A stretch of 64,000 nucleotides of DNA from Salinispira sp. (lineage in GTDB: Bacteria > Spirochaetota > Spirochaetia > DSM-27196 > Salinispiraceae): positions 128,001 through 192,000 of the forward strand of contig CBDDDG010000021.1 in NCBI GenBank assembly GCA_965226555.1, given 5' to 3'. The position numbers were made by a program, and so were the translations under genes. Below are positions 49,030-64,000 of this stretch, piece after piece. The first letter of the stretch is position 1, and each line of letters starts with the position of its first letter. Below the pieces are notes generated by a model. That model ran no database searches. It saw nothing but the letters and a program-made list of their open reading frames with translations, and was not told the origin of the DNA.

Positions 49030-49470
49030 TCAATATGAACCGGCGTCAATATCGTGATCGTCATGATTTCCGCTGCTGCCGTGCGCGTCTTCAATCTGCT
49101 TGTTCATGCGGGCGATAATTCTGTTCGGCAGACAGGCAGCCCAGTCGCCGCCCCGTTCGAGGTAGCCGAATGAAATACAAATTTTATCTCTGCAGTCGGA
49201 ATGGACAAAACGCGCCCTCCCATCATTCGTGACCTCAAGGATTGTTTTGCCGATCGGGCCTTCAAATTCAACTGTCCGGGGACTGCCGAGTTCATAGCGG
49301 TATTCGGTACCGGATGCCTGAATGAGAACTGATCCGGCAGCGCCGATGTTCTGTACCGACAGAATGAGGAAAAGAATGAAGATCCCAATATATGTGAAAA
49401 TTACAATGAAGTCTCCGGGAGTGAGCGCGCGGAAAAAAGTGGATAATTTGGGGAATCGGCGCCGCATCAT
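49030..49470 (-). CDS. NusG domain II-containing (DUF1312) protein
   Basis: TM followed by GPIG, SDCRDKIC and ACLPNRI motifs. Confidence 0.85.
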   Translation of the reverse strand: MMRRRFPKLSTFFRALTPGDFIVIFTYIGIFILFLILSVQNIGAAGSVLIQASGTEYRYELGSPRTVEFEGPIGKTILEVTNDGRARFVHSDCRDKICISFGYLERGGDWAACLPNRIIARMNKQIEDAHGSSGNHDDHDIDAGSY

Positions 49471-50204
49471 GACCGTTTTTTGCGGTTGCAGATGTACAGA
49501 CCCGAACCCTGCTCATTCCTGCGGTGATCAACCGTGAAAAGGCCAATTGCCCGCACAAGCTCGCCCAGTTTGTTGTAGCCATAGTTGCGGGCGTCAAACT
49601 GCGGCCAGGCGTTCATAACAATTTGCCCAACTGTTCCGAGGTTTGACCAGCCATCGTCATCGTTGCTGTCATCAATGGCCTTGCGTATGGAGTTGATGAG
49701 GCGGGTGTCCTGCTTGAGTTTCATGGGGGTAATTTTTTTTGCCGCAATTTGCGGTTCGTCTCCGGCGCCGTGGAGGTTTTCGGTGTAGAAAAAGCGGTCG
49801 CAGGCTGAGGTGAAGGACTCAGGGGTCTGTTTTCTTCCGAAGCCGAATACAATTTTCCCCGATTCTCTCAGGCGCGATGAAAGCCGCGTGAAATCGCTGT
49901 CGGAGCTGACAATGCAGAATCCATCGAGGTTATCGGCGTACAGCAGGTCCATGGCATCAATAATGAGTGCCGAATCGGTGGCATTCTTGCCAATTGTGTA
50001 GGCAAACTGCTGCATGGGCTGGAGGGAGTTGGAGTGCATGTGCTCCTTCCATGTTTTCATATGCGTGCTGGTCCAGTCGCCGTATATCCGTTTAACATGG
50101 GCTATGCCATGGTTTGCGACCTCTGTGAGTATGGCTTCAATGAGTCCTGCCTGAGTGTTATCGGCATCTATAAGCACCGCAAGACGTTTCTGGTTTTCTT
50201 TCAT
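49467..50204 (-). CDS. NYN-domain ribonuclease-like protein with C-terminal OST-HTH/LOTUS domain
   Basis: LAVLIDADN, KRIYGDW, GKNATDSALIIDAMD, SSDSDF and FDARNYG motifs. Confidence 0.92.
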   Translation of the reverse strand: MKENQKRLAVLIDADNTQAGLIEAILTEVANHGIAHVKRIYGDWTSTHMKTWKEHMHSNSLQPMQQFAYTIGKNATDSALIIDAMDLLYADNLDGFCIVSSDSDFTRLSSRLRESGKIVFGFGRKQTPESFTSACDRFFYTENLHGAGDEPQIAAKKITPMKLKQDTRLINSIRKAIDDSNDDDGWSNLGTVGQIVMNAWPQFDARNYGYNKLGELVRAIGLFTVDHRRNEQGSGLYICNRKKRS

Positions 50205-50334
50205 ATTAGTTCCTATTCCTGTGTAACTCTGATAAAGTATATACTGCCGATTAGAAAAGATCAACAAACAGGGTTTGCATGAATAAAGTTTGTATTTTGC
50301 AAAACTTTGTAATATACTTATTGAAATGTTTGCA

Positions 50335-50368
50335 TTGGAAAATTGTGCAGAGCACAATTTCCAGTAGC
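50335..50368. repeat. Inverted copy of the palindromic element at 6218-6250
   Basis: TTGGAAAATTGTGCAGAGCACAATTTCCAGTAGC is the reverse complement of the 6218 copy with one extra base. Confidence 0.88.
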
Positions 50369-50405
50369 GAAACGTTATCAAATTATTACCGTAAGGAGTG
50401 AAAGT

Positions 50406-51950
50406 ATGAGGATCAAATTTATGGGGGGGGTAGCTCTCGTCGCATTCTGCTCAATGTTTATTGTATTGATTGCCGGATGTCCGATGCCGGAACCAACCCC
50501 TGAACCCGAGCCAACCGTGCCGGGCACAATGGCTGCGCCAACCCTTGAAGTGGGGAATAAGGCACTCATTGCTACATGGACTGCTCCGAACAATGGCGGA
50601 AGCCCCATTACCGGGTATGCTCTGCAATATCGCACAGGCGGTGAAGCATGGACGGAAATTACCGAAGGCATCACCGGCACAGACCACAGCATTACGGGCC
50701 TAGCAAACGCCGCCGAGTACCGCGTACAGGTGCGCGCCGTCAATGCGGTCGGCGCTGGCGACTGGTCGGAATCTGCCGCTGCAACTCCCCCTGCCACTGT
50801 TCCTGCTGCCCCGGTTGCCCCAACCCTTTATGCGGGCACTGGACGGTTCGTTGCTACATGGACTGCGCCGGAAGATAACGGCGGCAGCGCTATTACCGGG
50901 TATGCTCTGCGATATCGCACAGGCGACGGAGCATGGACACAAATTACCGAAGGCATCACCGGCACAGACCACAGCATTACGGGACTGACAAACGGCGCCA
51001 TCTACCACGTGCAGGAGCGCGCCATCAATGAAATCGGCGCTGGACCCTGGTCTGTATCCGCGCAGGGAACGCCGCTAATTTCTACGACATATATTCCTGA
51101 GAGTACGGCAGTTCCTGTAGTCCCTGTGGCTGTCTATAATGCCATTATTGCCAATGAAAACCTCAGCGTTTCTTTAACCCCGGTGGAACCGGGCACTCTC
51201 ACGGTTGAAGGAGGAGACCTGAAGGTAACCCCCGCAACTGCGCCCGACAATGTCACCCCGCCGACAGTTAATGAAAGTACCGGAATTGTTACGGTTACTA
51301 CAAGTACAACGGCAGGAATATATCTGGTATATGGCACTGAAGCCGGAGGTACAGGTATACTGTTTGCCGAATATTTCTACGTTACCGTGAATCCTCAAAC
51401 TAACGGTAGACTGAAAACAGCGGTAACTGACGGGATAACTGCTTGGGGCAATACTGCCGACCTCAACTACATTCTTACCGCGGCAGTAACGGATATGTCT
51501 GAGATTTTCCTACGTAAAAGTGCATTCGCTGGCGACATCTCGCTCTGGGATGTCAGCTCGGTAATGAATATGGCAAGTATGTTCCAGGACGCAAGCGCAT
51601 TCAATGGCGACATCTCACTCTGGGATGTTAGCTCGGTAACGAATATGCAGGGGACATTCAATGGAGCAACCTCATTCAATGGCGATATCTCCGGCTGGAA
51701 TGTCAGTTCGGTAACAAGTATGACCGGTATGTTCCAATCGGCAAGCGCATTCAATCAAAATCTTGAGGATTGGGCCTGGAATAACTCGGTTAATCCCGCT
51801 GTTACATGGAAGACTACTGATGGTGGTGGTAAATGGAATGATGGCACATATATCGGAACTAAATCTGCTATGTTTGCGAATTCCGGCTTGGATGTGGATA
51901 CGGATGGCATTACTCCTGGGAAGCAAACGATTTTTCCGTCATGGTATTAG
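50406..51950 (+). CDS. Fn3 + DUF285/BspA-like repeat surface lipoprotein; in-frame G8 tract in the signal peptide
   Basis: AAGGAG RBS, G8 at 50423-50430, lipobox LIAGC, two Fn3 domains, FNGDISLWDVSS repeats, terminal PSWY. Confidence 0.88.
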   Translation: MRIKFMGGVALVAFCSMFIVLIAGCPMPEPTPEPEPTVPGTMAAPTLEVGNKALIATWTAPNNGGSPITGYALQYRTGGEAWTEITEGITGTDHSITGLANAAEYRVQVRAVNAVGAGDWSESAAATPPATVPAAPVAPTLYAGTGRFVATWTAPEDNGGSAITGYALRYRTGDGAWTQITEGITGTDHSITGLTNGAIYHVQERAINEIGAGPWSVSAQGTPLISTTYIPESTAVPVVPVAVYNAIIANENLSVSLTPVEPGTLTVEGGDLKVTPATAPDNVTPPTVNESTGIVTVTTSTTAGIYLVYGTEAGGTGILFAEYFYVTVNPQTNGRLKTAVTDGITAWGNTADLNYILTAAVTDMSEIFLRKSAFAGDISLWDVSSVMNMASMFQDASAFNGDISLWDVSSVTNMQGTFNGATSFNGDISGWNVSSVTSMTGMFQSASAFNQNLEDWAWNNSVNPAVTWKTTDGGGKWNDGTYIGTKSAMFANSGLDVDTDGITPGKQTIFPSWY

Positions 51951-52085
51951 AAACTTTTGCGGAAGCGCGGTTTCCAGAAAAAGCATTCCATAAGCATTCT
52001 GAGGAGGAAATCTGCTTCGAATTATATGTTCCGGTGGAAAGCTGAATCTGAAATTACCCTAGTATAATGATTATGGGAGCATGAA

Positions 52086-52613
52086 ATGGGATCGAAAAAT
52101 CAGAGAGAGGTTGATGCGCGCGCATTAGTGCTGTCGGTGCCTGAAAAAGATTATGGCGAGAATTACCGGGATCATTTCCTGCAAATCTATTTCACATGTC
52201 TTGATATGGCAGATAAGATTAGTGATCGGCGGCAGTCGGCAAATAGCTTTTTTTTGAGCATCAATTCTGCCATTATTGCTTTTTTCGGATATACCGCATC
52301 GGGCGCTGGTAATGTTCCGGCGGAGTTGCCTCAGTGGCAGTGGATATTTGCCGCTGTTGGAGTGCTGCTCTGTTGGATATGGCGCGGGCTGATTATTTCG
52401 TATAAACGATTAAACAGCGCGAAGTTCAAAATCATACTCGAAATGGAAAAGCACCTCCCCGCAAAACCATTCGGCGCGGAATGGGAACTCCTAGAAAAAG
52501 GACAGAAGCCGAAAATCTACCGACCATTTACCACCATGGAACAGTATGTGCCGGTAATTTTCATGGCGCTGCACGTAATTATTATTATTTTTGCAGCCGG
52601 ATTTTTGCGATAA
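52086..52613 (+). CDS. Small membrane protein, RipA/8xMP-like (possible pore-forming defence effector)
   Basis: MADKISDRRQSANSFF, SYKRLNSAKFKII..E..LP, three hydrophobic segments. Confidence 0.6.
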   Translation: MGSKNQREVDARALVLSVPEKDYGENYRDHFLQIYFTCLDMADKISDRRQSANSFFLSINSAIIAFFGYTASGAGNVPAELPQWQWIFAAVGVLLCWIWRGLIISYKRLNSAKFKIILEMEKHLPAKPFGAEWELLEKGQKPKIYRPFTTMEQYVPVIFMALHVIIIIFAAGFLR

Positions 52614-53006
52614 TGCCTTCCAGCATTCGTTGAGCAGATTGTTCTTCCAGCAAAAAAACAACTTCCTTCACCGGGGATCCGCTCCATTGAAAAGCCCCTC
52701 TGTCCACAACCACCTGACTGCCCCGTCCGGCAAATTGCCGAAATTCCTCGGCCAATTCCTCCAGCAGCGTGGGATACAGCTGATTCTCCGGCTCCGTACC
52801 TCGGCAAAACCCTTGCTGCCGCCCTCTTTCACGAGGGCGGTATGGACATTGGACTTGAGAGCTTCCTGTAAAAACTCAAACACATGAAAAATCGTGCTTT
52901 TGCCAGTGCCGTTGGCGCCGACAATTACGCAAAAATTGGGTATGTCTCTCATAGTGACAGAACGCAGCCCCTTGAAATTCTTAACCCGTAATTGCTCAAT
53001 TTTCAT
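52600..53006 (-). pseudogene. Internally deleted AAA ATPase gene plus the start of a DUF4276-like partner
   Basis: Walker A GANGTGKS joined out of frame to EPENQLYP, then terminal LWTEGLFNGADPR*; overlapping GTG 52671 gives VKEVVFLLEEQSAQRMLEGII. Confidence 0.7.
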
Positions 53007-55183: not shown

Positions 55184-56788
55184 TTAGAACCGCCTGTCAC
55201 TTAGTTCCCTGTAGGCATCGGTGCCTTGTAAGGCTTCGTTTTCCTGTATGAGATCCCATGCGGTGGTTCCGTTTTCATCCTGTGCATGAACATCAGCGCC
55301 GGCATTCAGGAGTGTGGTAATAATTTCGGGGTTTTGGTTATATCTGGCAGCCAACAATAGGGCTGTCCATCCGAGGTTATTCCGCGCATGAACATCAGCC
55401 CCGGCATTGATGAGGGTGGTAATGATATTAGGTTTTTGGGTATTACTGGCAACCATCATCAGGGGAGTCCATCCGAGGTTATTCTGCGCATGAACATCAG
55501 CGCCGGCATTGATGAGGATGGTAATGACATCGGGATTTTGGTTATTACGGGCAGCCCACATCAGGGGAGTCCATCCGTCTTTAGTCCGCGCATGAATATC
55601 AGCTCCGGCATTGATGAGGATGGTAATGACATTGGGGTTTTTATTATTTTTGGTAGCCACCATCAGGGAAGTCCATTCGTATTCAGTCCGCGCATGAATA
55701 TCAGCGCCGGCATTGATGAGGGCGGTAATGACATCGGGGTTTTCGTTATATTCGGCAGCCCGCATCAGGGGAGTCCATCTGAATTTATTCCGCGCATTAG
55801 CATCAGCTCCCGCATCTAGCAGGGCGGTAATAATTTTGGGGTTTTGGTTATATCTGGCAGCCGCCATCAGGGGAGTTCCGTATTCATTCCGCTCATTAGC
55901 ATCAGCTCCCGCATCTAGCAGGTCGGTAATAATTTTGGGGTTTTGGTTATTACGGGCAGCCACCATCAGGGCTGTCCATCCGTATTCAGTCCGCGCATGA
56001 ATATCAGCTCCAGCATTGATGAGGGTGGTAATGACATCGGGGTTTTGGTTATATCTGGCAGCCGCCATCAGGGGAGTTCCGTATTCATTCCGCGCATTAG
56101 CATCAGCTCCCGCATCTAGCAGGGCGGTAATAATTTCGGGGTTTTGGTTATATCTGGCAGCCACCATCAGGGCTGTCCATCCGTTTTCAGTCCGCGCATG
56201 AATATCAGCTCCAGCATTGATGAGGGCGGTAATGACATCGGGGTTTTGGTTATATCTGGCAGCCCGCATCAGGGAAGTCCTTCCGTCTTCGGTCTGCGCA
56301 TGAATATCAGCGTCAGCATTGATGAGGGCGGTAATGACATCGGGGTTTTGGTTATTACGGGCAGCCAGCATCAGGGATGTCCATCCGTCTTTAGTCCGCG
56401 CATGAATATCAGTTCCAGCATTGAAGAGGGCGGTAATGACATCAGGGTTTTGGTTATATCTGGCAGCCACCATCAGGGCTGTCCATCCGTTTTCAATTTG
56501 CGCATGAACATCAGCTCCTGCATTGAATAGGGCGGTAATGATATTAGGGTTTTGGTTATTACTGGCAGCCAACATCAGAGGAGTCCATCCGCGGTTATTC
56601 CGCGCATGAACATCAGCCCCGGCATTTATGAGGGCTGTAATAATTTCGGGGTTTTGGTTATATCTGGCAGCCCGCATCAGGGGAGTCCTTCTGTCTTCAT
56701 CCTTCGCATATACATCTATGCTTCCTGCGCTCAGTGCCTGCCGTACTTCTTTAGGCGATATGTTTATCCAGTCTTTGGCATCCCACAT
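55184..56788 (-). CDS. Ankyrin-repeat protein, about 14 near-identical 33-34-aa repeats between N- and C-caps
   Basis: (TPLMxAAxxNQNPDVITALINAGADIHAR)n with a 99-102-bp period. Confidence 0.95.
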   Translation of the reverse strand: MWDAKDWINISPKEVRQALSAGSIDVYAKDEDRRTPLMRAARYNQNPEIITALINAGADVHARNNRGWTPLMLAASNNQNPNIITALFNAGADVHAQIENGWTALMVAARYNQNPDVITALFNAGTDIHARTKDGWTSLMLAARNNQNPDVITALINADADIHAQTEDGRTSLMRAARYNQNPDVITALINAGADIHARTENGWTALMVAARYNQNPEIITALLDAGADANARNEYGTPLMAAARYNQNPDVITTLINAGADIHARTEYGWTALMVAARNNQNPKIITDLLDAGADANERNEYGTPLMAAARYNQNPKIITALLDAGADANARNKFRWTPLMRAAEYNENPDVITALINAGADIHARTEYEWTSLMVATKNNKNPNVITILINAGADIHARTKDGWTPLMWAARNNQNPDVITILINAGADVHAQNNLGWTPLMMVASNTQKPNIITTLINAGADVHARNNLGWTALLLAARYNQNPEIITTLLNAGADVHAQDENGTTAWDLIQENEALQGTDAYRELSDRRF

Positions 56789-56952
56789 CAGGGAGTACTT
56801 CCGTATTCGGTCTGTGCATGAATATCAGCGCCGGCATTCAGCGGGGCGGTAATGACATCGGGGTTTTGGTTATAAACGGCAGTGTGCATACGGGCAGTGT
56901 AGCCGATACACAGCAGTATCGTCAATATCATTGAAAAATTGTATGTTTTCAT
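56788..56952 (-). CDS. 54-aa leader ORF (hydrophobic N-terminus + partial ankyrin repeat) joined by a TGATG overlap to the ankyrin gene
   Basis: MKTYNFSMILTILLCIGY...EYGSTP*; the stop overlaps ATG 56788. Confidence 0.6.
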   Translation of the reverse strand: MKTYNFSMILTILLCIGYTARMHTAVYNQNPDVITAPLNAGADIHAQTEYGSTP

Positions 56953-57022
56953 AATGACCTTTGTTATATGTTGATGGTCAATTATATATGATGTCGCGGG
57001 ATGCATCTATAGTGCCGCTTTT

Positions 57023-58665
57023 TTAGAACCGCCTTTTGTTGAGTTCCCTGTAGGCATCGGTTCCTTGTAAGGATTCGTTTTCCTGTATGAGAGCCCATGC
57101 GGTGGTTCCGTTTTCATCTTGTGCATGAACATCAGCCCCGGCATTGATGAGGGCGGTGATAATTTCAGGATTTTCATTATATCTGGCAGCAAACAACAAG
57201 GGAGTCCATTTGTATTCATTCCGCGCATTAGCATCAGCTCCCGCATTCAAGAGAGTGGTGATGATTTCAAGGTTGCTGTTAAAACCAGCAGCCGCCATCA
57301 GGGGAGTCCATCCGCGGTTATTCTGCGCATGAACATCAGCGCCGGCAGTGATGAGGGTGGTAATGACATCAGGGTTTTTATTATTTTTGGCAGCCACCAT
57401 CAGGGGAGTCCATCCGCGGTTATTCTGCGCATGAACATCAGCGCCGGCATTGATGAGGATGGTAATGACATCAGGGTTTTTATTATTTTTGGCAGCCATC
57501 ATCAGGGAAGTCCATTCGTATTCAGTCTGCGCATGAATATCAGCGCATTAGCATTGATGAGGGCGGTAATGACATCGGGGTTTTGGTTATATCTGGCAGC
57601 CGCCATCAGGGGAGTTCCGTATTCATTCCGCACATTAGCATTAGCTCCCGCATTGATGAGGGCGGTAATAATTTCGGGGTTTTGGCTAGGGCAGCCACCA
57701 TCAGGGGTCCATCCGTTTTCAGTCCGACATCAGGGCATTGATGAGGGTGGTAATGACATCGTTCAGGGGGTTATCTGGTCAGGGAGCCGCCATCCGTTTT
57801 CAGTCCGCACATGAATATCAGCTCACGGGCAGCCATCATCATGGCTGTCCATCCGTTTTCAGTCCGCGCATGAATATCAGCTCCAGCATTAATGAGGGCG
57901 GTAATGACATCGGGGTTTTGGTTATATCTGGCAGCCGCCATCAGGGGAGTTCCGTATTCATTCCGCCATTAGCATCAGCTCCCGCATCTAGCAGGGCGGT
58001 AATAATTTCGGGGTTTTGGTTATATCTGGCAGCCGCCATCAGGGGAGTCCATCCGTTTTCGGTCCGCGCATGAATATCAGCTCCAGCATTGATGAGGGTG
58101 GTAATGACATCGGGGTTTTGGTTATATTTGGCAGCCCGCATCAGGGCTGTCCATCCGTCTTTAGTCCGCGCATGAATATCAGCGTCAGCATTGATGAGGG
58201 CGGTAATGACATCGGGGTTTTGGTTATTACGGGCAGCCAGCATCAGGGATGTCCATCCGTCTTTAGTCCGCTCATGAATATCAGCTCCCGCATCTAGCAG
58301 GACAGTAATAATTTCGGGGTTTTGGTTATATCTGACAGCCCACATCAGGGGAGTCCATCTGTTTTTATCCCGTCCGTTAACATCAGTGCCGGCATTGATA
58401 AGGGTGGTAATGACATCGGGGTTTTGATTATTACTGGCAGCCACCATCAGGGCTGTCCATTCCGTTATTCAGTCTGCGCATAAATATCAGCTCCGGCATT
58501 TATGAGGGCTGTAATAATTTCGGAGTTTTGGTTATATTTGGCAGCCCGCATTAGGGAAGTCCTTCCGTCTTCATCCTTCGCATATACATCTATGCTTCCT
58601 GCGCTCAGTGCCTGCCGTACTTCTTTAGGCGATATGTTTACCCAGTATTCTTTGGCATCCCACAT
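57023..58665 (-). pseudogene. Tandem duplicate ankyrin gene broken by several indels (true decay or assembly error)
   Basis: Fragments 58465-58665, 57941-58447 and 57023-57502; scrambled repeats at about 57680-57850. Confidence 0.8.
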
Positions 58666-58829
58666 CAGAGAGTACTTCCGTATTCGGTCTGCGCATGAAT
58701 ATCAGCGTCAGCATTGATGAGGGCGGTAATGACATCGGGGTTTTGGTTATAAACGGCAGCGTGCATACGGGCAGTGTAGCCGATACACAGCAGTATCGTC
58801 AATATCATTGAAAAATTGTATGTTTTCAT
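58665..58829 (-). CDS. Second copy of the 54-aa leader ORF with the same TGATG junction
   Basis: MKTYNFSMILTILLCIGY...EYGSTL*. Confidence 0.6.
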   Translation of the reverse strand: MKTYNFSMILTILLCIGYTARMHAAVYNQNPDVITALINADADIHAQTEYGSTL

Positions 58830-58907
58830 AATGACCTTCGCTATATGTGTTATATTTGATGGTCAATTATATATGATGTCGCGGGATGTATCTATAGTGC
58901 CGTTTTT

Positions 58908-59699
58908 TTAGAATCGCCCTTGGCTGAGTTCCCTGTAGGCATCGGTTTCCTCTACGGCTTCGTTTTCCTGTATGAAATCCCATGCGGTGTTTCCGTATTC
59001 ATCTTGCGCATGAACATCGGCGCCGGCATTGATGAGGGTGGTGATAATTTCGGAATTTTCGTTATACCAAGCAGCCAGCATCAGGGCTGTCAATCCATCT
59101 CCAATCCGCGCATGAACATCAGCATCGGCATTCAGGAGGGCGGTGATAATTTCGGGGTTTTGGTTATATCTGGCAGCCCGCATCAGGGGAGTCCATCCGT
59201 TTTCATCCGGTATGTTAACATCAGCCCCGGCATTCAGAAGGGCTGTGATAATTTCGGGATTTTCGTTATATCTGGCAGCCACCATCAGGGAGGTCAATCC
59301 GCCTCCGGTCTGCGCATGAACATCGGCGCCCGCATTCAGCAGAGTGGTAATAATTTCAGGATTTTCGTTATTAAAGGCAGCCGTCATCAGGGCTGTCCAT
59401 TTGTATTCACCCTGCGCATTACCATCAGCGCCGGCCTTCAGCAGGGCGGTAATGGCAGCGGGGTTTTGGTTAATGGCGGCAGCCCATATCAGGGCAGTGT
59501 TTCCGTATTCATCCTCCGCATATGTATTTATGCTTCCTGCGCTCAGTGCCTGCTGTACTTCTTCAGGCGATATGTTTATCCAGTACTCTTTGGCAGCCCA
59601 TTCCTGCTCAGATGCGGAATTGCCTGCCGTTGTCATGCATGAGCTTAGTACGACCACTGTTAGCAGCAGCGCTGAAATGTACGGGTTGATGTTTGCCAT
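58908..59699 (-). CDS. Ankyrin-repeat lipoprotein (about 5 repeats)
   Basis: AGGAGG RBS, lipobox VLSSC, same N-cap (WINISP.EV.QALSAGSI) and C-cap (AWD.IQENE...TDAYREL...RF). Confidence 0.92.
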   Translation of the reverse strand: MANINPYISALLLTVVVLSSCMTTAGNSASEQEWAAKEYWINISPEEVQQALSAGSINTYAEDEYGNTALIWAAAINQNPAAITALLKAGADGNAQGEYKWTALMTAAFNNENPEIITTLLNAGADVHAQTGGGLTSLMVAARYNENPEIITALLNAGADVNIPDENGWTPLMRAARYNQNPEIITALLNADADVHARIGDGLTALMLAAWYNENSEIITTLINAGADVHAQDEYGNTAWDFIQENEAVEETDAYRELSQGRF

Positions 59700-59889
59700 T
59701 GTATCCTCCTGAATAGGTAATCGCGCGTACACGCATTGTACCATGTTTTGCTAAGTATTTACCGTTGGTATTCCAGATTTATCGACACTACCGCCTGTCA
59801 TTTAATTATCTGGTAGCATCAACATCACCCTCACGATTGACAAAAAACGATTGGCAGGGTGTAATGCAGGGGAGGATGTGCGTTCATAC

Positions 59890-60300
59890 ATGCTTACAAA
59901 ACTGATAATAGAGAATTTCAAACTTTTTGAGCGGGCGGAAATTCCGCTCGGCAACGGCTTTGTGTTTATTGGCCCGAACAACAGGGGGAAAACAACTGCC
60001 CTGCAGGCGCTGGCGCTCTGGCATTTTGGGCTGCGGGGCTTTCTCTTGGCAGATCGCACAGACAAGTCTCTGCAAACAACGGGGAATCTGCGGGAATATC
60101 AATGGAAAAAACGTGAAATAGAGAATTATCTCTGCAATAAGCAGGCAATTTCGGATATTCCCTCTTCGCGTTCTTTGCAGAAGAAAGATTTCTACAAACT
60201 GATCGCACACATTCCTGAAAAAGACATTGACCCCGAGGTAAGCGATGTGCTGGACATGGTGCAGCAGGTGGCGGAAGCGGGGGCAACAGTGACCGCATGA
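59890..60300 (+). pseudogene. Miniaturised AAA ATPase/TOPRIM-like gene, still in frame after internal deletions
   Basis: MLTKLIIENFK..F, GPNNRGKT Walker A, then directly DR...WKKREIENYL and a C-terminal helix; no Walker B; 136 aa. Confidence 0.65.
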
Positions 60301-60373
60301 TTGAGCTTAAAACAACGTTGTTTTACGCAATGAATCATGAAAATTTCGAGTTTCCAGAGGTTCCCAGTTTCCA

Positions 60374-62494
60374 TTAGGGCTTTTCTCCAACATTCACCTC
60401 CACAGTTGTCATTGTGTCGTTGCCGAGAATGTCTACCACCTTCACAGCGATCTTACGCCGCCCGGGACTCACCTCGCGTGCCGCGCTTTTCAGTTCCAGC
60501 GAACGATCCTTCCGTGTGCGGAAGCTCTGCCACTCGTTCTCGAAAATATAATTGCCCGTCCACTCCTCGCTGGTCTCACCGATTTCCGAATTTTTCACGC
60601 GGATAATTTCCCGCTTATTTTCGAAGTCGAAGTCAACGCTCCAGTAGTCTATCCAATCTGTCCAGCTCTGGGTTAGTATTTCGCGCTGCACAATTCCCTT
60701 TTTGTCTTTACTCAGCCGTATAACCTGCCCATTTTTCACCACGATTTTGCTGCCTTCCTTCTTCGTTTTGCTCAGCGCATCTTCTGCTTTGATGATGCTG
60801 TCCTGCGAGTAGTAGACCGAGAAATCTGTCAACTCCACTGCCACCGTTGGCGGCGTGCTTTTCTTGCCCGCGCGTACATGCGGTTTTACCTCAATGTAGC
60901 TCACATCGTGAAAAACCACGTGGTTCTTTTCTACCGCCCGTTTGTCGAAGACCTCCGCGGGAATGTATTTCGGCGCAATGTTAATGCCCGTGGACAGAGC
61001 CTCGTTCAGCGAGTTGGGGAAGAGCCCCATTTCGAACTCGAAGCCGAGGATGTCTACCGCGCTCATGTGTTTTTTGCGGCATTCGCGGATGATCTCCTCC
61101 ACAAAGAGCCTCGTTACCGGTAGGTTCACCGGTCCTATCGCCACAAGCCGCCCTGCTCGCGTGCCGTGGAAGCTCTCGAACTGCGTTACCTTTTCCGCTC
61201 CGTAGGCCTTCAGAATGAGGTCGAGGAAGGCAGCCTCCTTCTGCGCCAGTTGCTGCAGCTGTTCCTCCTCGCGCAGGTTAGGATTAATGCCCACAAAATG
61301 CTGGCGCTCGTATTTGCCGAGGTTGAGAATTTCAAAGGCGCGGTAATTTTGCCCCTGCTCTTTACGCTGCCGCTGCACAGCGATCATCCGTTTGCGCGTG
61401 CTGTGAATGGCGAACTTGCCCAGATCCGCGCACATCCATTTGCGCCCCAACTGTTCCGCTACTGCCGCCGTTGTGCCCGAGCCGCAGAAGAAGTCGGCGA
61501 CAAGATCGCCTTCGTTGCTGGATGCTTTAATAATGCGTTCGAGCAGGGCTTCGGGTTTTTGGGTGGGGTAGCCGATTCGTTCATCGGCTAATGGGTTTAT
61601 TATTGGAATATCCCAAACATCATCTACCGGTGTTCCACGTGGATTAGGCTCATATTTTGTTCCTGATGCGCCAACTATTCCACCCCTAGCGTAACCACTG
61701 GTTTCTTTATAGGGAACCCGAACAGCGTCAATATTGAAGATACATTTCTCTGCTTTCCGATACCAGAAGAGGTTGTCGTGCTTCTTTGAGAAATAGTGTG
61801 TTGATCGTCCGCCGCCGGTATAGTGCCAAGCTATTTCATTGAGATGGTTTCCTTGTCCAAAAATCTCATCTAAGCACAGTCGAACTACGGAGTTTACGCG
61901 CCAATCGCAATGCACATAAATACTCCCATCCTCGGCTAACAAGTCCCGCATGAGAATGAGGCGTTCGTAGATCATGGCGATGAAGGAATCGGCGCCCTTG
62001 CCCCAGGTGTCGCGGTAGGCAATTTCCTCAATAATGCTGGGTTTTTTGGTAAAGGTGTCGCCGCCGATCTCAATATTCATGGAGAAATCCGCTCCCACAT
62101 CGAAGGGCGGGTCAATGTAAATGAGTTTCAGCCCGCCCTGTGCCTCAATATCATCGCGCAGCGGCCCGTTCTTGAGGGCTGACAGGATCAGCTTGTTGTC
62201 GCCCCAGATCAGCTTGTTTGTCCAGCCCTTGATCTGCCGTCCCCGCTCATCGGTCGAGAATAACTCCATCTGCTGTGATGTATCATACGGCTTCTCCGCC
62301 CGCGGCTCGTCCACCTGCTCAATGGTCTGGAAGGGCAGCGTAATGTTGCAGACCTCAGTGGTTTTCCCGTTCCAGACAAGTTCGACCTCGCGCGTGTCTT
62401 CGAACAGCAGAAATCGGTACTTCTCCGGCAGCGCCTTGCCCGCCTCAATGCAACGCTCAATTTCCTGTTTTTCCTGTTCAGTCAGTTTCAGCAT
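60374..62494 (-). CDS. Type III Mod-like adenine DNA methyltransferase without adjacent Res
   Basis: [31 protein letters not shown] and [12 protein letters not shown] motifs. Confidence 0.92.
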
Positions 62495-62505
62495 GTATTG
62501 CTTTA

Positions 62506-63117
62506 TTACCTCTTTGCGATTCCTGAATTCCTGCCCTGCTCTATTTTTCTGTATAATCTCCCGCTGCCCGTATGTCCCCATTCTCCCGTTCTTGCCTGAT
62601 CATTCGAATGATCAGATGCCCCCTGCGACATTCCCTTTGATGGCTGTAACACTCCCATGGAGGGTGTTCGCATGAGTACGCTAATTAATTCTTCAACTGC
62701 CGATCTTCCTTCGAATGTTTGATAACCGGTTGGTTTTCCCGGATATCGCACAATTCCTTGAGAGTTATAGTATGAAAGTTCTTCCTTAGCATATATTTCT
62801 GCAAATTTTGAAGGGTTTGTTCGTACTGCGTTGGTTACAAGGATTACTCCTTTCTCATTATTGCTTAGGTAGTCGACATCTTTCGCGGTATTTAGTTCTT
62901 CTACAGGCCATCCATCGCGTTCCATGCGAATGACCAATTGTTCATATTGATTATCTTCAAATATGCTTTCATTGTTTGAAAGATTGTTTGAAATATTTAA
63001 GGCACTTGCTATGGAGTCAACAATTCCTTGAACTGTCTCACAGGAGGAAAATAAAAGGAGCGATAGGAGAACTATGCACATGTAATGTATTCTAACTTTC
63101 TTGGAGCATTTTTTCAA
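62506..63117 (-). pseudogene. CAP/SCP-domain lipoprotein, apparently C-terminally truncated
   Basis: TTG start, lipobox LFSSC, N..RTNP, A.DHS.DQ...G..GHTGS; the sequence then diverges before the expected ENI/GHR motifs. Confidence 0.6.
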
Positions 63118-63162
63118 TTCAACAAGGATTTTCCAGAAAGCTCTGGAGCCTTATTTCTCATA

Positions 63163-64000
63163 TCAAAACCGCCTGTCACTTAGTTCCCAGTAGGCATCGG
63201 TTCCCTCTAAGGCTTCGTTTTCCTGTATGAGATCCCATGCGGTATCTCCTTCGTCACTCCGCACTTGTACATCGGCTCCTGCATTTAGCAGAGTGATAAT
63301 AATATCGGGATTTTGGTTTTTACTAGCAGCGAACATCAGGGGTGTCGCTCCATATTCATTCCGCGCATGAACATCAGCTCCTGCATTGATGAGGGTAGTA
63401 ATAATATCGGGATTTTGGTTTTCAGTAGCAGCCGCCATCAGGGGAGTCGTTCCGTTTTCATTCCGCGCATTAACATCAGCACCGGCATTCAGCAGGGTGG
63501 TGATGATTTCGGAATTTTCGTTAGACCAGACAGCCGCCATCAGGGGAGTCCATCCGCTGTTATTCTGCGCATGAACATCAGCGCCAGCATTTATGAGGGT
63601 GGTAAGGACATCGAGGTTTTGGTTGTTAGCGGCAGCCACCATCAGGGGAGTCAATCCGTTTTCCTCCCGCGCATGAACATCAGCTCCGGCATTGATGAGA
63701 GCGGTAATGACATCGGGGTTTTGGTTATTATCGACAGCGAACATAAGGGGAGTCGCTCTGTTTTCATTCCGCGCATGAACATCAGCTCCTGCATTGATGA
63801 GGGTAGTAATGACATCGAGGTTTTGGTTATTAGCGGCAGCCACCATCAGGGGAGTCAATCCGTTTTCAATCTGCGCGTTAACATCAGCGCCAGCATTGAT
63901 GAGGGTAGTAATGACATTGGGGTTTTTGTTAACAAAGATAGCCATCATCAGGGGAGTAAATCCGTTTTTATCCCGCGCATGAACATCAGCGCCAGCATTG
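63163..64000 (-). CDS. Ankyrin-repeat protein, 5' end outside the window
   Basis: Same repeat and C-cap family as the 55-59 kb genes; repeats continue to the window edge. Confidence 0.93.
   Translation of the reverse strand, partial: NAGADVHARDKNGFTPLMMAIFVNKNPNVITTLINAGADVNAQIENGLTPLMVAAANNQNLDVITTLINAGADVHARNENRATPLMFAVDNNQNPDVITALINAGADVHAREENGLTPLMVAAANNQNLDVLTTLINAGADVHAQNNSGWTPLMAAVWSNENSEIITTLLNAGADVNARNENGTTPLMAAATENQNPDIITTLINAGADVHARNEYGATPLMFAASKNQNPDIIITLLNAGADVQVRSDEGDTAWDLIQENEALEGTDAYWELSDRRF

Follow-up and report, generated by a model that had tools for sequence, protein, structure and literature searches.

The window, a 64,000-nt stretch of a Spirochaetota metagenome-assembled genome (completeness 93.5%, contamination 6.67%), holds part of a tandem family of ankyrin-repeat genes that has probably grown by duplication and unequal recombination of its repeat units, followed by amino-acid change that is fastest at a few codons predicted to lie in the binding groove of proteins that are mostly predicted to be exported. 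Approximately 10 genes are arranged in tandem on the minus strand in a 25-kb cluster extending beyond the window end, and two more family loci lie outside the cluster in the same genome. Searches with tblastn and an HMM built from the repeat gave 162 repeat matches in 25 open frames. All family members have in common an N-cap, a 34-aa repeat subtype with the consensus GxTxLM-x-AA-xx-NxNP-xxITxLxxAGAD, and a C-cap, and eight of the 10 cluster genes have signal-peptide-like N-termini, a call made by eye from the N-termini alone. The closest relatives show at most 51% identity over short stretches only, with no orthologues, and the metagenome loci that resemble the family reach at most 40% identity. 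As part of the same reading, and with the same confidence, we consider the family to be lineage specific.

The family members in the window are listed in Table 1. The 534-aa gene consists of an N-cap, 14 repeats (12 of 34 aa and two of 33 aa without column 5, as numbered below), and a C-cap, and has no in-frame signal peptide. The open frame upstream of it encodes the signal-peptide-like MKTYNFSMILTILLCIG and then a partial repeat, and it ends in a TGA that has one base in common with the 534-aa gene's ATG. Over 128 nt, this frame matches the corresponding stretch upstream of the second gene at 97.7% identity, and there the same signal-peptide-like start and partial repeat are out of frame with the N-cap. 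The second gene shares both the N-cap and the C-cap with the first and is 86% identical to it over 1.7 kb. The 278-aa gene encodes a lipoprotein-type signal peptide (…VVLSSC, presumably a lipobox, as matched by eye to the consensus), an N-cap, five repeats, and a C-cap; the 524-aa gene encodes a lipoprotein-type signal peptide, an N-cap, 12 units as counted, and a C-cap. The sharing of C-cap and N-cap among paralogues that differ in repeat number, as noted in the preliminary description, is visible in the open frames.

Table 1. Coordinates of the ankyrin family features (window positions, except for the cluster)
Feature	Position	Strand	Basis or remark
Ankyrin gene, 534 aa	55184..56788	-	ORF; Pfam Ank_2 E = 1.7e-148, Ank E = 1.2e-97
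Open frame upstream of 534-aa gene	56788..57006	-	72 aa stop to stop, Met ~56952
Second ankyrin gene, five frame pieces	57023..58701	-	Self-BLAST, frame reading
Second-gene frame pieces	58465-58701, 57941-58468, 57771-57968, 57502-57729, 57023-57547	-	
Open frame upstream of second gene	58665..58862	-	65 aa stop to stop
Ankyrin gene, 278 aa	58908..59744	-	ORF; Pfam Ank E = 4.4e-35
524-aa ankyrin gene, 3' part	63163..64000	-	Rest beyond window, L001 1163-2737
Ankyrin gene cluster	C21:183187-207944	-	tblastn + repeat HMM

The codon-by-codon analysis covered columns 1–30 of each unit, where column 3 is the codon preceding the beta-turn Gly and column 10 is the codon following LM. For the 534-aa gene, it had been claimed that the former is always NNC and the latter always NNG. 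Both claims hold, with NNC in 15 of 15 units including the C-cap unit (GAC, CGC, AAC, TAC, TTC, and CTC) and NNG in 14 of 14 (CGG, TTG, GTG, CTG, GCG, TGG, and ATG), and the exceptions listed for the paralogues (GAT, TAT, TTC, and TTT) are present as well. The pattern is therefore real, but it is less special than described. A frozen wobble base is not peculiar to these two codons, since the third base is invariant in 13 of the 30 columns across the 14 repeats of this gene. Family-wide, the third base is C in 108 of 118 units at column 3 and G in only 74 of 118 at column 10, where 35 units have T, mostly as TTT (Phe). Column 3 encodes D, N, or Y in 91 of 118 units and, instead of varying freely as NNC, switches at a single base, (G/A/T)AC. 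Codon bias is not the source of the pattern: for D, N, and Y the genome prefers T-ending codons (GAT 0.68, AAT 0.59, TAT 0.61), and their C-ending codons have a usage of 0.32–0.41. Because the wobble bases run against this bias, they record the common descent of the repeats. The NNC/NNG appearance would thus be inherited: all units would go back to a single ancestral unit, and their wobble bases would have yet to move toward the genome's preference for T. A further contribution would come from the genetic code, in which base 1 alone distinguishes the codons for D, N, and Y, and those for W and M must end in G.

To place the columns on the fold, the repeat register was set by alignment to ankyrin-R/B, the best solved-structure matches (PDB 4rlv, E = 4.5e-79; 5y4d, E = 2.6e-76), and to designed ankyrin (DARPin) chains (PDB 6mol_A, 2qyj, and 1mj0). 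The ankyrin binding groove is built of inner helices and finger loops, as described for ankyrin-R/B (PMC4358367). In that description the groove is extremely conserved among animal ankyrins, whereas it is the most variable part of this family. The repeats of DARPin 6mol_A differ from one another at positions 2, 3, 5, 13, 14, 26, and 33, and columns 2, 3, 5, 13, and 14 of our repeat coincide with positions of this set. Of the two codons that had been assigned to the binding surface, column 3 thus aligns to a position that differs among the 6mol_A repeats; column 10 aligns to the fixed Leu of TPLHLAA in that chain, yet it sits on the inner helix. From this register, the fast-changing codons are predicted to face the binding groove.

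Third codon positions of the repeats change at the background silent rate. By parsimony, there are six silent changes on 0.38 silent sites at column 3 (15.8 per site), with 15.6 per site at column 10 and 17.4 globally. Positions 1 and 2 change two to several times faster in columns 5, 10, and 13, with column 3 a less clear case. The parsimony changes per nucleotide at codon positions 1/2/3 are 35/31/20, 37/30/20, 37/28/32, and 34/17/9 for these columns, respectively, and four-fold third positions average 16.7 changes (range 5–43). The global omega of the repeats is 0.66. Site-wise codon likelihood was applied on two trees of the units, both from 90 nt and poorly resolved: a full tree, which is conservative, and a scaffold-only tree built without the variable codons, which is liberal for balanced polymorphisms. 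At column 10, dN robustly exceeds dS by every estimator, with ratios of 1.6–1.8 from independent nearest pairs, 1.9 from parsimony counts, 5.9 on the full tree (beta/alpha, p = 3.6e-6), and 19 on the scaffold-only tree (p = 1e-10), in a comparison of paralogous repeats from one genome, in which repeated mutation and the reshuffling of old variants by recombination look alike. The outcome at column 3 depends on the estimator and runs from 0.3 to 6: 0.3–0.9 from independent nearest pairs, 1.2 by parsimony, 2.4 on the full tree (p = 0.036), and 6.0 on the scaffold-only tree (p = 4e-5). Of 60 neutral simulations, five fell below p = 0.05 and none below p = 0.001, which indicates that the site-wise test is calibrated. 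With alpha fixed at its global value, columns 3, 5, 10, and 13 reach omega values of 1.7, 2.8, 2.9, and 3.2 on the full tree (p = 1e-3 to 5e-15), but such tests overstate the signal because four-fold sites differ so widely in their number of changes. When each site is given its own silent rate, columns 5 and 13 fall short of significance on both trees (ratios 1.2–1.6). Thus, of the two codons named in the preliminary description, column 10 has dN/dS above 1 and column 3 does so only by some estimators. The diversifying selection with repeat shuffling proposed there stands in kind, but "strong" is too much.

The same data bear on an alternative that we regard as unlikely, namely that the variable codons are unconstrained surface positions drifting approximately neutrally in recent duplicates, with the wobble bases reflecting shared descent and no positive selection. 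Parsimony omega is 1.0–1.2 at columns 1, 2, 3, and 23 and only 1.5–1.9 at columns 5, 10, and 13, the fastest four-fold site exceeds every replacement position, and the nearest pairs at column 3 and the lack of significance of columns 5 and 13 relative to their own silent rates favor relaxed constraint as well. Against it, column 10 changes at 5.9-fold its own silent rate on the conservative tree (p = 3.6e-6) with no neutral simulation below p = 0.001, column 3 is significant on the tree made without the variable codons, and its restriction to mostly D, N, and Y is far from free. These observations would be accounted for by selection that promotes or maintains differences in groove residues between repeats.

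The units themselves are less alike than had been described. The scaffold DNA is not "nearly identical," as mean pairwise identity is 81% for DNA and 68% for protein within the 534-aa gene and 74% and 62.5%, respectively, across 115 family units; self-BLAST among the family genes gave 71–86% identity over long stretches. Re-used near-identical units do exist but are few, with nine segment pairs at or above 96% identity over 77–128 nt in the 25-kb cluster. For 47 of 115 units the nearest neighbor belongs to the same gene (12.5 expected by chance), for the other 68 it belongs to a different gene, and two-unit blocks with a common one-codon deletion were found in two genes. Duplication of these 34-residue units, together with their unequal recombination, is the likely route by which the family expanded.

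Programmed cassette recombination like that of spirochaete vls/tprK, in which broken or start-less copies serve as silent donors copied piecewise into an expressed ankyrin gene, is very improbable. In its favor, the host is a spirochaete, one copy is in five frame pieces, the signal peptide is out of frame in two copies, and for most units the closest relative belongs to another gene. However, each copy comes with an N-cap, a C-cap, and a signal-peptide sequence upstream, all of its own, which marks them as whole genes and not head-to-tail cassettes. Moreover, no segment at or above 96% identity exceeds 128 nt over the 71–86% background, a single expression site is not evident, and short-read contigs lack at least one of the frame breaks. 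In run X2, a 155-nt contig (one mismatch) is missing a base at 58461 and another at 58467, the site of the second gene's first frame break, and a run X3 contig carries the same two changes; this break may therefore be an assembly error or a polymorphism.

We give equally little credence to mis-joined or collapsed repeats in the metagenome assembly as the origin of chimeric units and an apparent pattern. The contamination of the assembly, the four frame breaks in the second gene, and the small insertions and deletions by which public-run contigs differ from the assembly would fit such an artefact, but the 534-aa gene reads as a single clean frame whose units have a regular length of 34 or 33 aa, 124 of the 236 run X1 contigs matched to the stretch are at least 99% alike, and mis-joins cannot confine variation to particular codon columns across 118 units at 12 loci.

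Mutagenesis of the diversity-generating retroelement (DGR) type, in which a reverse transcriptase copies a template repeat with adenine errors (AAC to NNC) and writes the product into the ankyrin repeats in trans, is rejected, and we assign it almost no weight. NNC is the classic DGR codon design, and its prevalence at column 3, on a predicted ligand-binding surface, resembles that design. However, the checks named in the preliminary description found none of the components in the 93.5%-complete assembly: RVT_1 at E ≤ 0.01 and TIGR02436 (Avd-type) had no match, although both searches give matches in control genomes, and no repeat copy lies outside the ankyrin loci as a possible template. Nor is the variation adenine-specific, as the consensus at variable nucleotide columns is A at five, G at seven, T at six, and C at seven. 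Of the 24 A-consensus columns, ten show conservation of 95% or more and are located between variable codons, including the A-rich scaffold codons AAC CAA AAC. In addition, changes at base 2 of column 3 are half as frequent as those at base 1 (17 versus 34), and an AAG template giving NNG would include TAG stops. Known DGR targets have C-type lectin or Ig folds, and the target fold here is ankyrin.

The likely explanation is ordinary selection, acting after the repeats had duplicated and favoring new binding surfaces, and not a mutagenic machine; of the earlier interpretation, the duplication and shuffling with diversifying selection is retained in kind and the DGR-like alternative is not. The encoded proteins are predicted to be exported solenoids that bind other proteins, with competitor, grazer, or phage proteins as candidate targets. 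This kind of evolution is already known and is best documented in the repeats of fungal NOD-like receptors (NLRs), where ANK, TPR, and WD repeat domains with high internal conservation have been described (Dyrka et al. 2014, PMC4986451). As described there, the fungal repeats resemble those of this family in keeping their scaffold conserved, in varying in number, in showing signs of exchange both among repeats and among genes, and in positive selection at a handful of concave-face positions (inner helices and beta-hairpin). In contrast, the present family is bacterial and without NACHT or NB-ARC, its members consisting outside the repeats of no more than the caps and, in most cases, a signal peptide, and its repeat identity (68% in the gene, 62.5% in the family) compares with a threshold of 85% given for the fungal NLRs.

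Among bacteria, Imm-ank immunity proteins, which are described in polyimmunity loci (PMC3482391), and the Bdellovibrio self-protection ankyrin, a conflict protein (PMC4686830), are likewise ankyrin-only proteins, some exported, which function through binding to another protein and form tandem paralogue arrays; partner binding is a prediction for our family. The likeness is one of description; a difference is that a Pfam scan of the cluster neighbors found no toxin genes.

DARPin libraries also combine a fixed framework, variable groove positions, and repeats flanked by an N-cap and a C-cap (PMC9611651), but their variation is combinatorial and that seen here is evolutionary. The repeat here is 34 aa long, with one residue more in the NxNP loop and TPLM in place of TPLH, column 10 is among the most variable positions and not a fixed Leu, and column 3 is not free as it is in the DARPin. 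Column 34, the equivalent of DARPin position 33, is by eye mostly R or Q.

All five copies in the window match Pfam ankyrin profiles, which identifies them as ankyrin repeat proteins, and their best PDB matches are ankyrin-1/2 and DARPins. For the 534-aa gene, Ank_2 was matched with E = 1.7e-148 and Ank with E = 1.2e-97 over 13 stretches (PF00023 / PF12796). The significant Pfam matches were to ankyrin families only, others falling below the curated cut-offs, and no NACHT or NB-ARC (NOD) domain was found. As the preliminary description had stated, the paralogues share their caps and differ in repeat number. The common N-cap reads …EYWxNxSPEEVxxALSAGxIDV… and the common C-cap …TAWDLIQENEALxGTDAYxEL…. 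The window corresponds to C21:128001-192000 of an assembly of 2.98 Mb in 26 contigs (93.54% complete, 6.67% contaminated). A tblastn search showed that the cluster extends beyond the window on the same contig (C21) to C21:207944 with six further genes of 129 to 883 aa, and that further related ankyrin loci are present on contigs C1 and C12.

Features of the ankyrin cluster in the window
Feature	Window position	Strand	Basis
Four ankyrin-repeat genes	55184-64000	minus	ORFs and Pfam
Ankyrin gene, 534 aa (first gene)	55184-56788	minus	
Second ankyrin copy, five frame pieces (second gene)	57023-58701	minus	
Ankyrin gene, 278 aa	58908-59744	minus	
735-aa N6/N4 DNA methylase and 149-aa AAA_15 ATPase fragment	59851-62581, between third and fourth ankyrin genes		PF01555, E = 1.1e-51 (methylase)
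203-aa protein	between third and fourth ankyrin genes		no Pfam match
Ankyrin gene, 524 aa, 3' part only inside window	from 63163, beyond window end	minus	

The repeat unit is 34 aa long, and its spacing in the 534-aa gene is 34 except for two cases of 33, in which one codon is missing. Units were numbered such that Gly is column 4, T-x-L-M columns 6-9, and N-Q-N-P columns 15-18; column 3 is the codon before Gly and column 10 the codon after LM. The register relative to the canonical repeat was set by alignment to ankyrin-1/2 and DARPin chains. In this register the column 9 Met occupies the place of the His of TPLH, column 10 takes that of the following Leu or Ile, and the inter-helix loop has one residue more than the canonical repeat. 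Whereas the canonical ankyrin unit has 33 residues and a TPLH motif, the unit here has 34 aa and TxLM, with Met at column 9 in 105 of 118 units. The 34-aa TxLM unit is a variant subtype, with membership in the ankyrin family intact. An AlphaFold2 model of the 278-aa paralogue, computed from the single sequence, had a mean pLDDT of 49 and was unusable, so the groove positions were assigned by aligning the sequence to chains of known structure. The ankyrin groove is formed by the inner helix and finger loops, according to a passage of PMC4358367, and column 10 is predicted to lie on that inner helix and to be part of the groove.

To describe codon use, 129 units were taken from the C21, C1, and C12 loci by repeat profile. 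Eleven units with insertions, deletions, or frame breaks were left out, giving 118 for codon counts, and three more (two signal-peptide-fused partial units and one truncated at a frame break) were left out of the rate analyses (n = 115). Within the 534-aa gene, the reported codon pattern was borne out: all 15 units have NNC at column 3, and all 14 have NNG at column 10. Its reading as a special, frozen wobble base held less well, since the third base is invariant in 13 of the 30 columns of that gene and a dominant third base is usual across the family. Family-wide, column 3 ends in C in 108 of 118 units (residues D 40, Y 26, N 25, others 27), and column 10 ends in G in only 74 and in T in 35 (F 29, L 23, V 14, W 13, R 13, A 13, plus others). 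The column 3 pattern opposes the codon bias of the genome (GAT 0.68, AAT 0.59, TAT 0.61). The scaffold DNA had been called nearly identical between repeats, which overstates the likeness: units of the 534-aa gene share on average 81% of their DNA and 68% of their protein sequence, and for the whole family these means fall to 74% and 62.5%. The re-use of near-identical units is likewise confined to nine segment pairs of at least 96% identity, 77-128 nt long, against a self-BLAST background of 71-86% over long stretches.

Silent change was then quantified by parsimony, using a FastTree of the 115 units and Fitch reconstruction, which counted 692 replacement changes and 371 silent ones. Per silent site, column 3 had 15.8 silent changes and column 10 had 15.6, compared with 17.4 overall; thus the third bases of both columns move at the background silent rate. 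The wobble looks frozen because NNY codons permit one silent change only, because W and M need G, and because the units are too young for silent sites to be saturated. We infer that the third base looks frozen as a side effect of shared descent and of the genetic code. The codon pattern is real but was over-read, and is an ordinary evolutionary signature rather than a mechanism. Four-fold third positions changed 16.7 times on average (range 5 to 43). It should be noted that silent change is uneven along the unit, with 5-9 changes at columns 7, 8, 11, and 12 (helix 1, beside the variable codons) versus 27 and 43 at columns 27 and 28; context-dependent mutation, selection on DNA or RNA, or short conversion tracts are possible causes.

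Replacement rates were estimated in several ways. Parsimony and nearest-pair omegas were taken against the global silent rate, with 57 independent nearest pairs, and ratios from uncorrected pairwise diversity were similar. The nearest-pair values are given little weight because pairing by overall likeness is biased to identical variable residues. Alpha and beta were also fitted codon by codon in a site-wise likelihood test (MG94 with HKY) on a fixed tree, which was either the full tree or a scaffold-only tree built minus the nine most variable codons; the global fit gave an omega of 0.66 and a kappa of 2.55.

Rates of change at variable columns of the repeat unit
Column	Changes per nucleotide, codon positions 1/2/3	Omega, parsimony	Omega, nearest pairs	Beta/alpha, full tree	Omega, alpha global	Beta/alpha, scaffold-only tree
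2				5.8, p = 0.002		5.0, p = 8e-4
3	34/17/9	1.2	0.3-0.9	2.4, p = 0.036	1.7	6.0, p = 4e-5
5	35/31/20	1.55	1.05-1.4	1.2, not significant	2.8	about 1.6, not significant (optimisation not clean even with clipping)
10	37/30/20	1.9	1.6-1.8	5.9, p = 3.6e-6	2.9	19, p = 1e-10
13	37/28/32	1.9	1.7-1.8	1.3, not significant	3.2	1.6, not significant
14						5.7, p = 3e-5
23						3.6, p = 1e-4

Since the variable codons contributed to the full tree, it errs on the conservative side. For balanced polymorphisms the scaffold-only tree errs on the liberal side, as these are inflated by topology errors, and the truth lies between the two trees. In 60 neutral simulations on the full tree, p fell below 0.05 in five and below 0.001 in none. 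At column 10, dN exceeds dS throughout, and this result is robust. Column 3 is probably above 1, although not robustly, as the outcome depends on the estimator. Columns 5 and 13 evolve fast, as do their own silent changes, and their excess is estimator-dependent: with alpha fixed at the global value, p ranged from 1e-3 to 5e-15 across columns 3, 5, 10, and 13, whereas columns 5 and 13 are not significant against their own alpha. The diversifying selection proposed in the preliminary description is upheld in kind, at column 10 by every estimator, but "strong" overstates it; per-site dN/dS, the check it had suggested, supports such selection to a moderate degree at one to four codons of the groove.

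The units themselves appear to have multiplied in place. For 47 of 115 units the nearest relative sits in the same gene, compared with 12.5 by chance, and for the other 68 it sits in another gene. Units that share the one-codon deletion occur twice in each of two genes, within a two-unit block. The own-gene excess and the recurring two-unit blocks fit tandem unit duplication combined with some exchange or shared ancestry between genes. Of the proposed repeat shuffling or gene conversion, this part stands; very recent or frequent conversion is argued against by the scarcity of long near-identical tracts. Cassette variation of the vls / tprK type is very unlikely, as every copy has its own caps and an upstream signal-peptide sequence and the longest tract of at least 96% identity is 128 nt. 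The suggestion of DGR-like templated mutagenesis is dismissed: in the 93.54%-complete assembly there were no matches at E <= 0.01 to the reverse transcriptase profile PF00078 (RVT_1; as a control, the same search was positive in 3 of 14 genomes) and none to the Avd-type four-helix-bundle profile TIGR02436 (positive in control genomes), blastn of the 534-aa gene against the genome returned ankyrin loci only and no spare copy that could serve as template repeat, and the variation is not adenine-specific, the consensus of the 25 nucleotide columns whose major allele is below 70% being A in 5, G in 7, T in 6, and C in 7, and 10 of 24 A-consensus columns being at least 95% conserved, including the AAC CAA AAC run between variable codons.

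The family was also sought in other genomes and in sequencing runs. A scan of genome contigs with the 278-aa paralogue found no locus, and a scan of metagenome contigs found nothing close (5 loci, 34-40% identity). Across 30 related genomes, identity was at most 51% and over short stretches only, compared with 53 matches in the source genome. A search of 5.8 billion proteins found many metagenome proteins that share the 34-aa subtype and its kind of C-cap (29-53% identity among the matches listed); homologues of this subtype carry H or M at column 9. The ankyrin expansion is lineage-specific, as far as sampled. The lipoyl synthase adjoining the cluster is closest to those of Spirochaetales and Spirochaetaceae MAGs, at no more than 70% identity. 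Five public runs contain part of the window, as contigs, with no RNA run listed among them. Contigs at least 99% alike came from runs of one coded sample and from a run labelled cave metagenome, which also contains a 436-nt contig matching the unique flank exactly. Because 107 of the 236 contigs of one run (X1) aligned at 90% likeness fit two places, population variants are inseparable from paralogous repeats.

By eye, 8 of the 10 cluster genes have hydrophobic, signal-peptide-like N-termini, for example MKTHNFLMILMLLCIGSLLPAQ and …VVLSSC, and two of these eight carry a lipobox-like …LSSC; export of the family proteins is a prediction. In the 534-aa gene and the second gene, the signal-peptide-like sequence is on a short upstream open frame whose reading phase differs from that of the N-cap. 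This frame, which holds the signal peptide and a partial repeat, ends in TGA in both copies (window 56786-56790 and 58663-58667), and at the 534-aa gene this stop codon shares one base with the ATG of the N-cap frame (TGATG). The two genes are 97.7% identical over 128 nt at this arrangement, which may be a frameshift passed on by descent, a case of translational coupling, or a fault of the assembly. The second gene has four frame breaks. A 155-nt contig from run X2, with 1 mismatch, has one base fewer at window 58461 and at 58467, and a contig from run X3 has the same two changes. Since the first frame break coincides with these positions, the second gene may be intact in the sequenced population.

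The closest precedent comes from fungal NOD-like receptors, whose ANK, TPR, and WD repeat domains keep their scaffold conserved, are polymorphic in repeat number, evolve in concert, and show positive selection on the concave face (PMC4986451). The family here resembles them in positive selection at concave-face positions, robust for column 10, and in differing repeat numbers, seen among paralogues of one genome. It differs in being bacterial, in having no NOD domain, and in unit identity, which is 68% within a gene and 62.5% across the family, as opposed to at least 85% over at least 100 aa in the text of PMC4986451. The family is neither a natural DARPin library nor a new DGR target. Positions differing between repeats of a DARPin chain coincide with variable columns 2, 3, 5, 13, and 14, and DARPin libraries have six randomised positions according to a review (PMC9611651); column 10, however, is a fixed Leu in DARPins and variable here. 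Bacterial ankyrin proteins appear as immunity proteins of polyimmunity loci in text from PMC3482391 and as a Bdellovibrio self-protection factor in text from PMC4686830. Unlike the Imm-ank polyimmunity loci, the cluster has no polymorphic toxin gene among its Pfam-scanned neighbours, a scan that covered some of the small ORFs; these neighbours comprise LipA and NadA-side housekeeping genes, the DNA methylase, AAA_15 fragments, an OmpA/FlgD_ig protein, a nucleotidyltransferase, an IS integrase, and an oxidoreductase.

Taken together, the family likely reflects repeat duplication with faster replacement at groove codons. A literature search found no prokaryotic ankyrin family analysed likewise, and the family is a clear-cut bacterial case of a process known so far mostly from fungal immune receptors. 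A bolder and rather unlikely reading is that it is a prokaryotic counterpart of the fungal repeat-receptor repertoires. The tandem set of predicted exported ankyrin binders, its groove kept diversifying by unit shuffling and positive selection, would then recognise or neutralise changing foreign proteins (competitor toxins, grazer factors, or phage parts) in a free-living spirochaete. Binding and targets of the family proteins are predictions; if they are exported binders with distinct targets, they would offer a natural scaffold set and a handle on the dealings of an uncultured spirochaete with other organisms.

Several features of the neighbourhood were also observed. Another AAA_15 fragment lies at window 52668-53006, and the methylase and AAA_15 fragments may be left over from a defence or restriction island. 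The upstream neighbours (window 49467-52613) encode a NYN/LOTUS-domain protein, a 535-aa surface-type protein with fn3 and DUF285, and an 8xMP membrane protein. Long antisense open frames on the plus strand cross the ankyrin genes (window 55388-58297; the frame at 55388-55819, for example, reads MNISPGIDEGGNDI…); they share the repeat period and look like a by-product of the codon make-up of the repeats. On L001, a stretch running past the window end, a 1293-aa protein with FlgD_ig, CHU_C, Big_13, and a C-terminal OmpA domain lies among the ankyrin genes (L001 2896-6777, C21:192896-196777). On the same stretch, an IS-type integrase (rve, HTH_21; L001 14608-15899, C21:204608-205899) abuts the 129-aa ankyrin gene, which ends after two repeats and was probably cut by an IS-type insertion.
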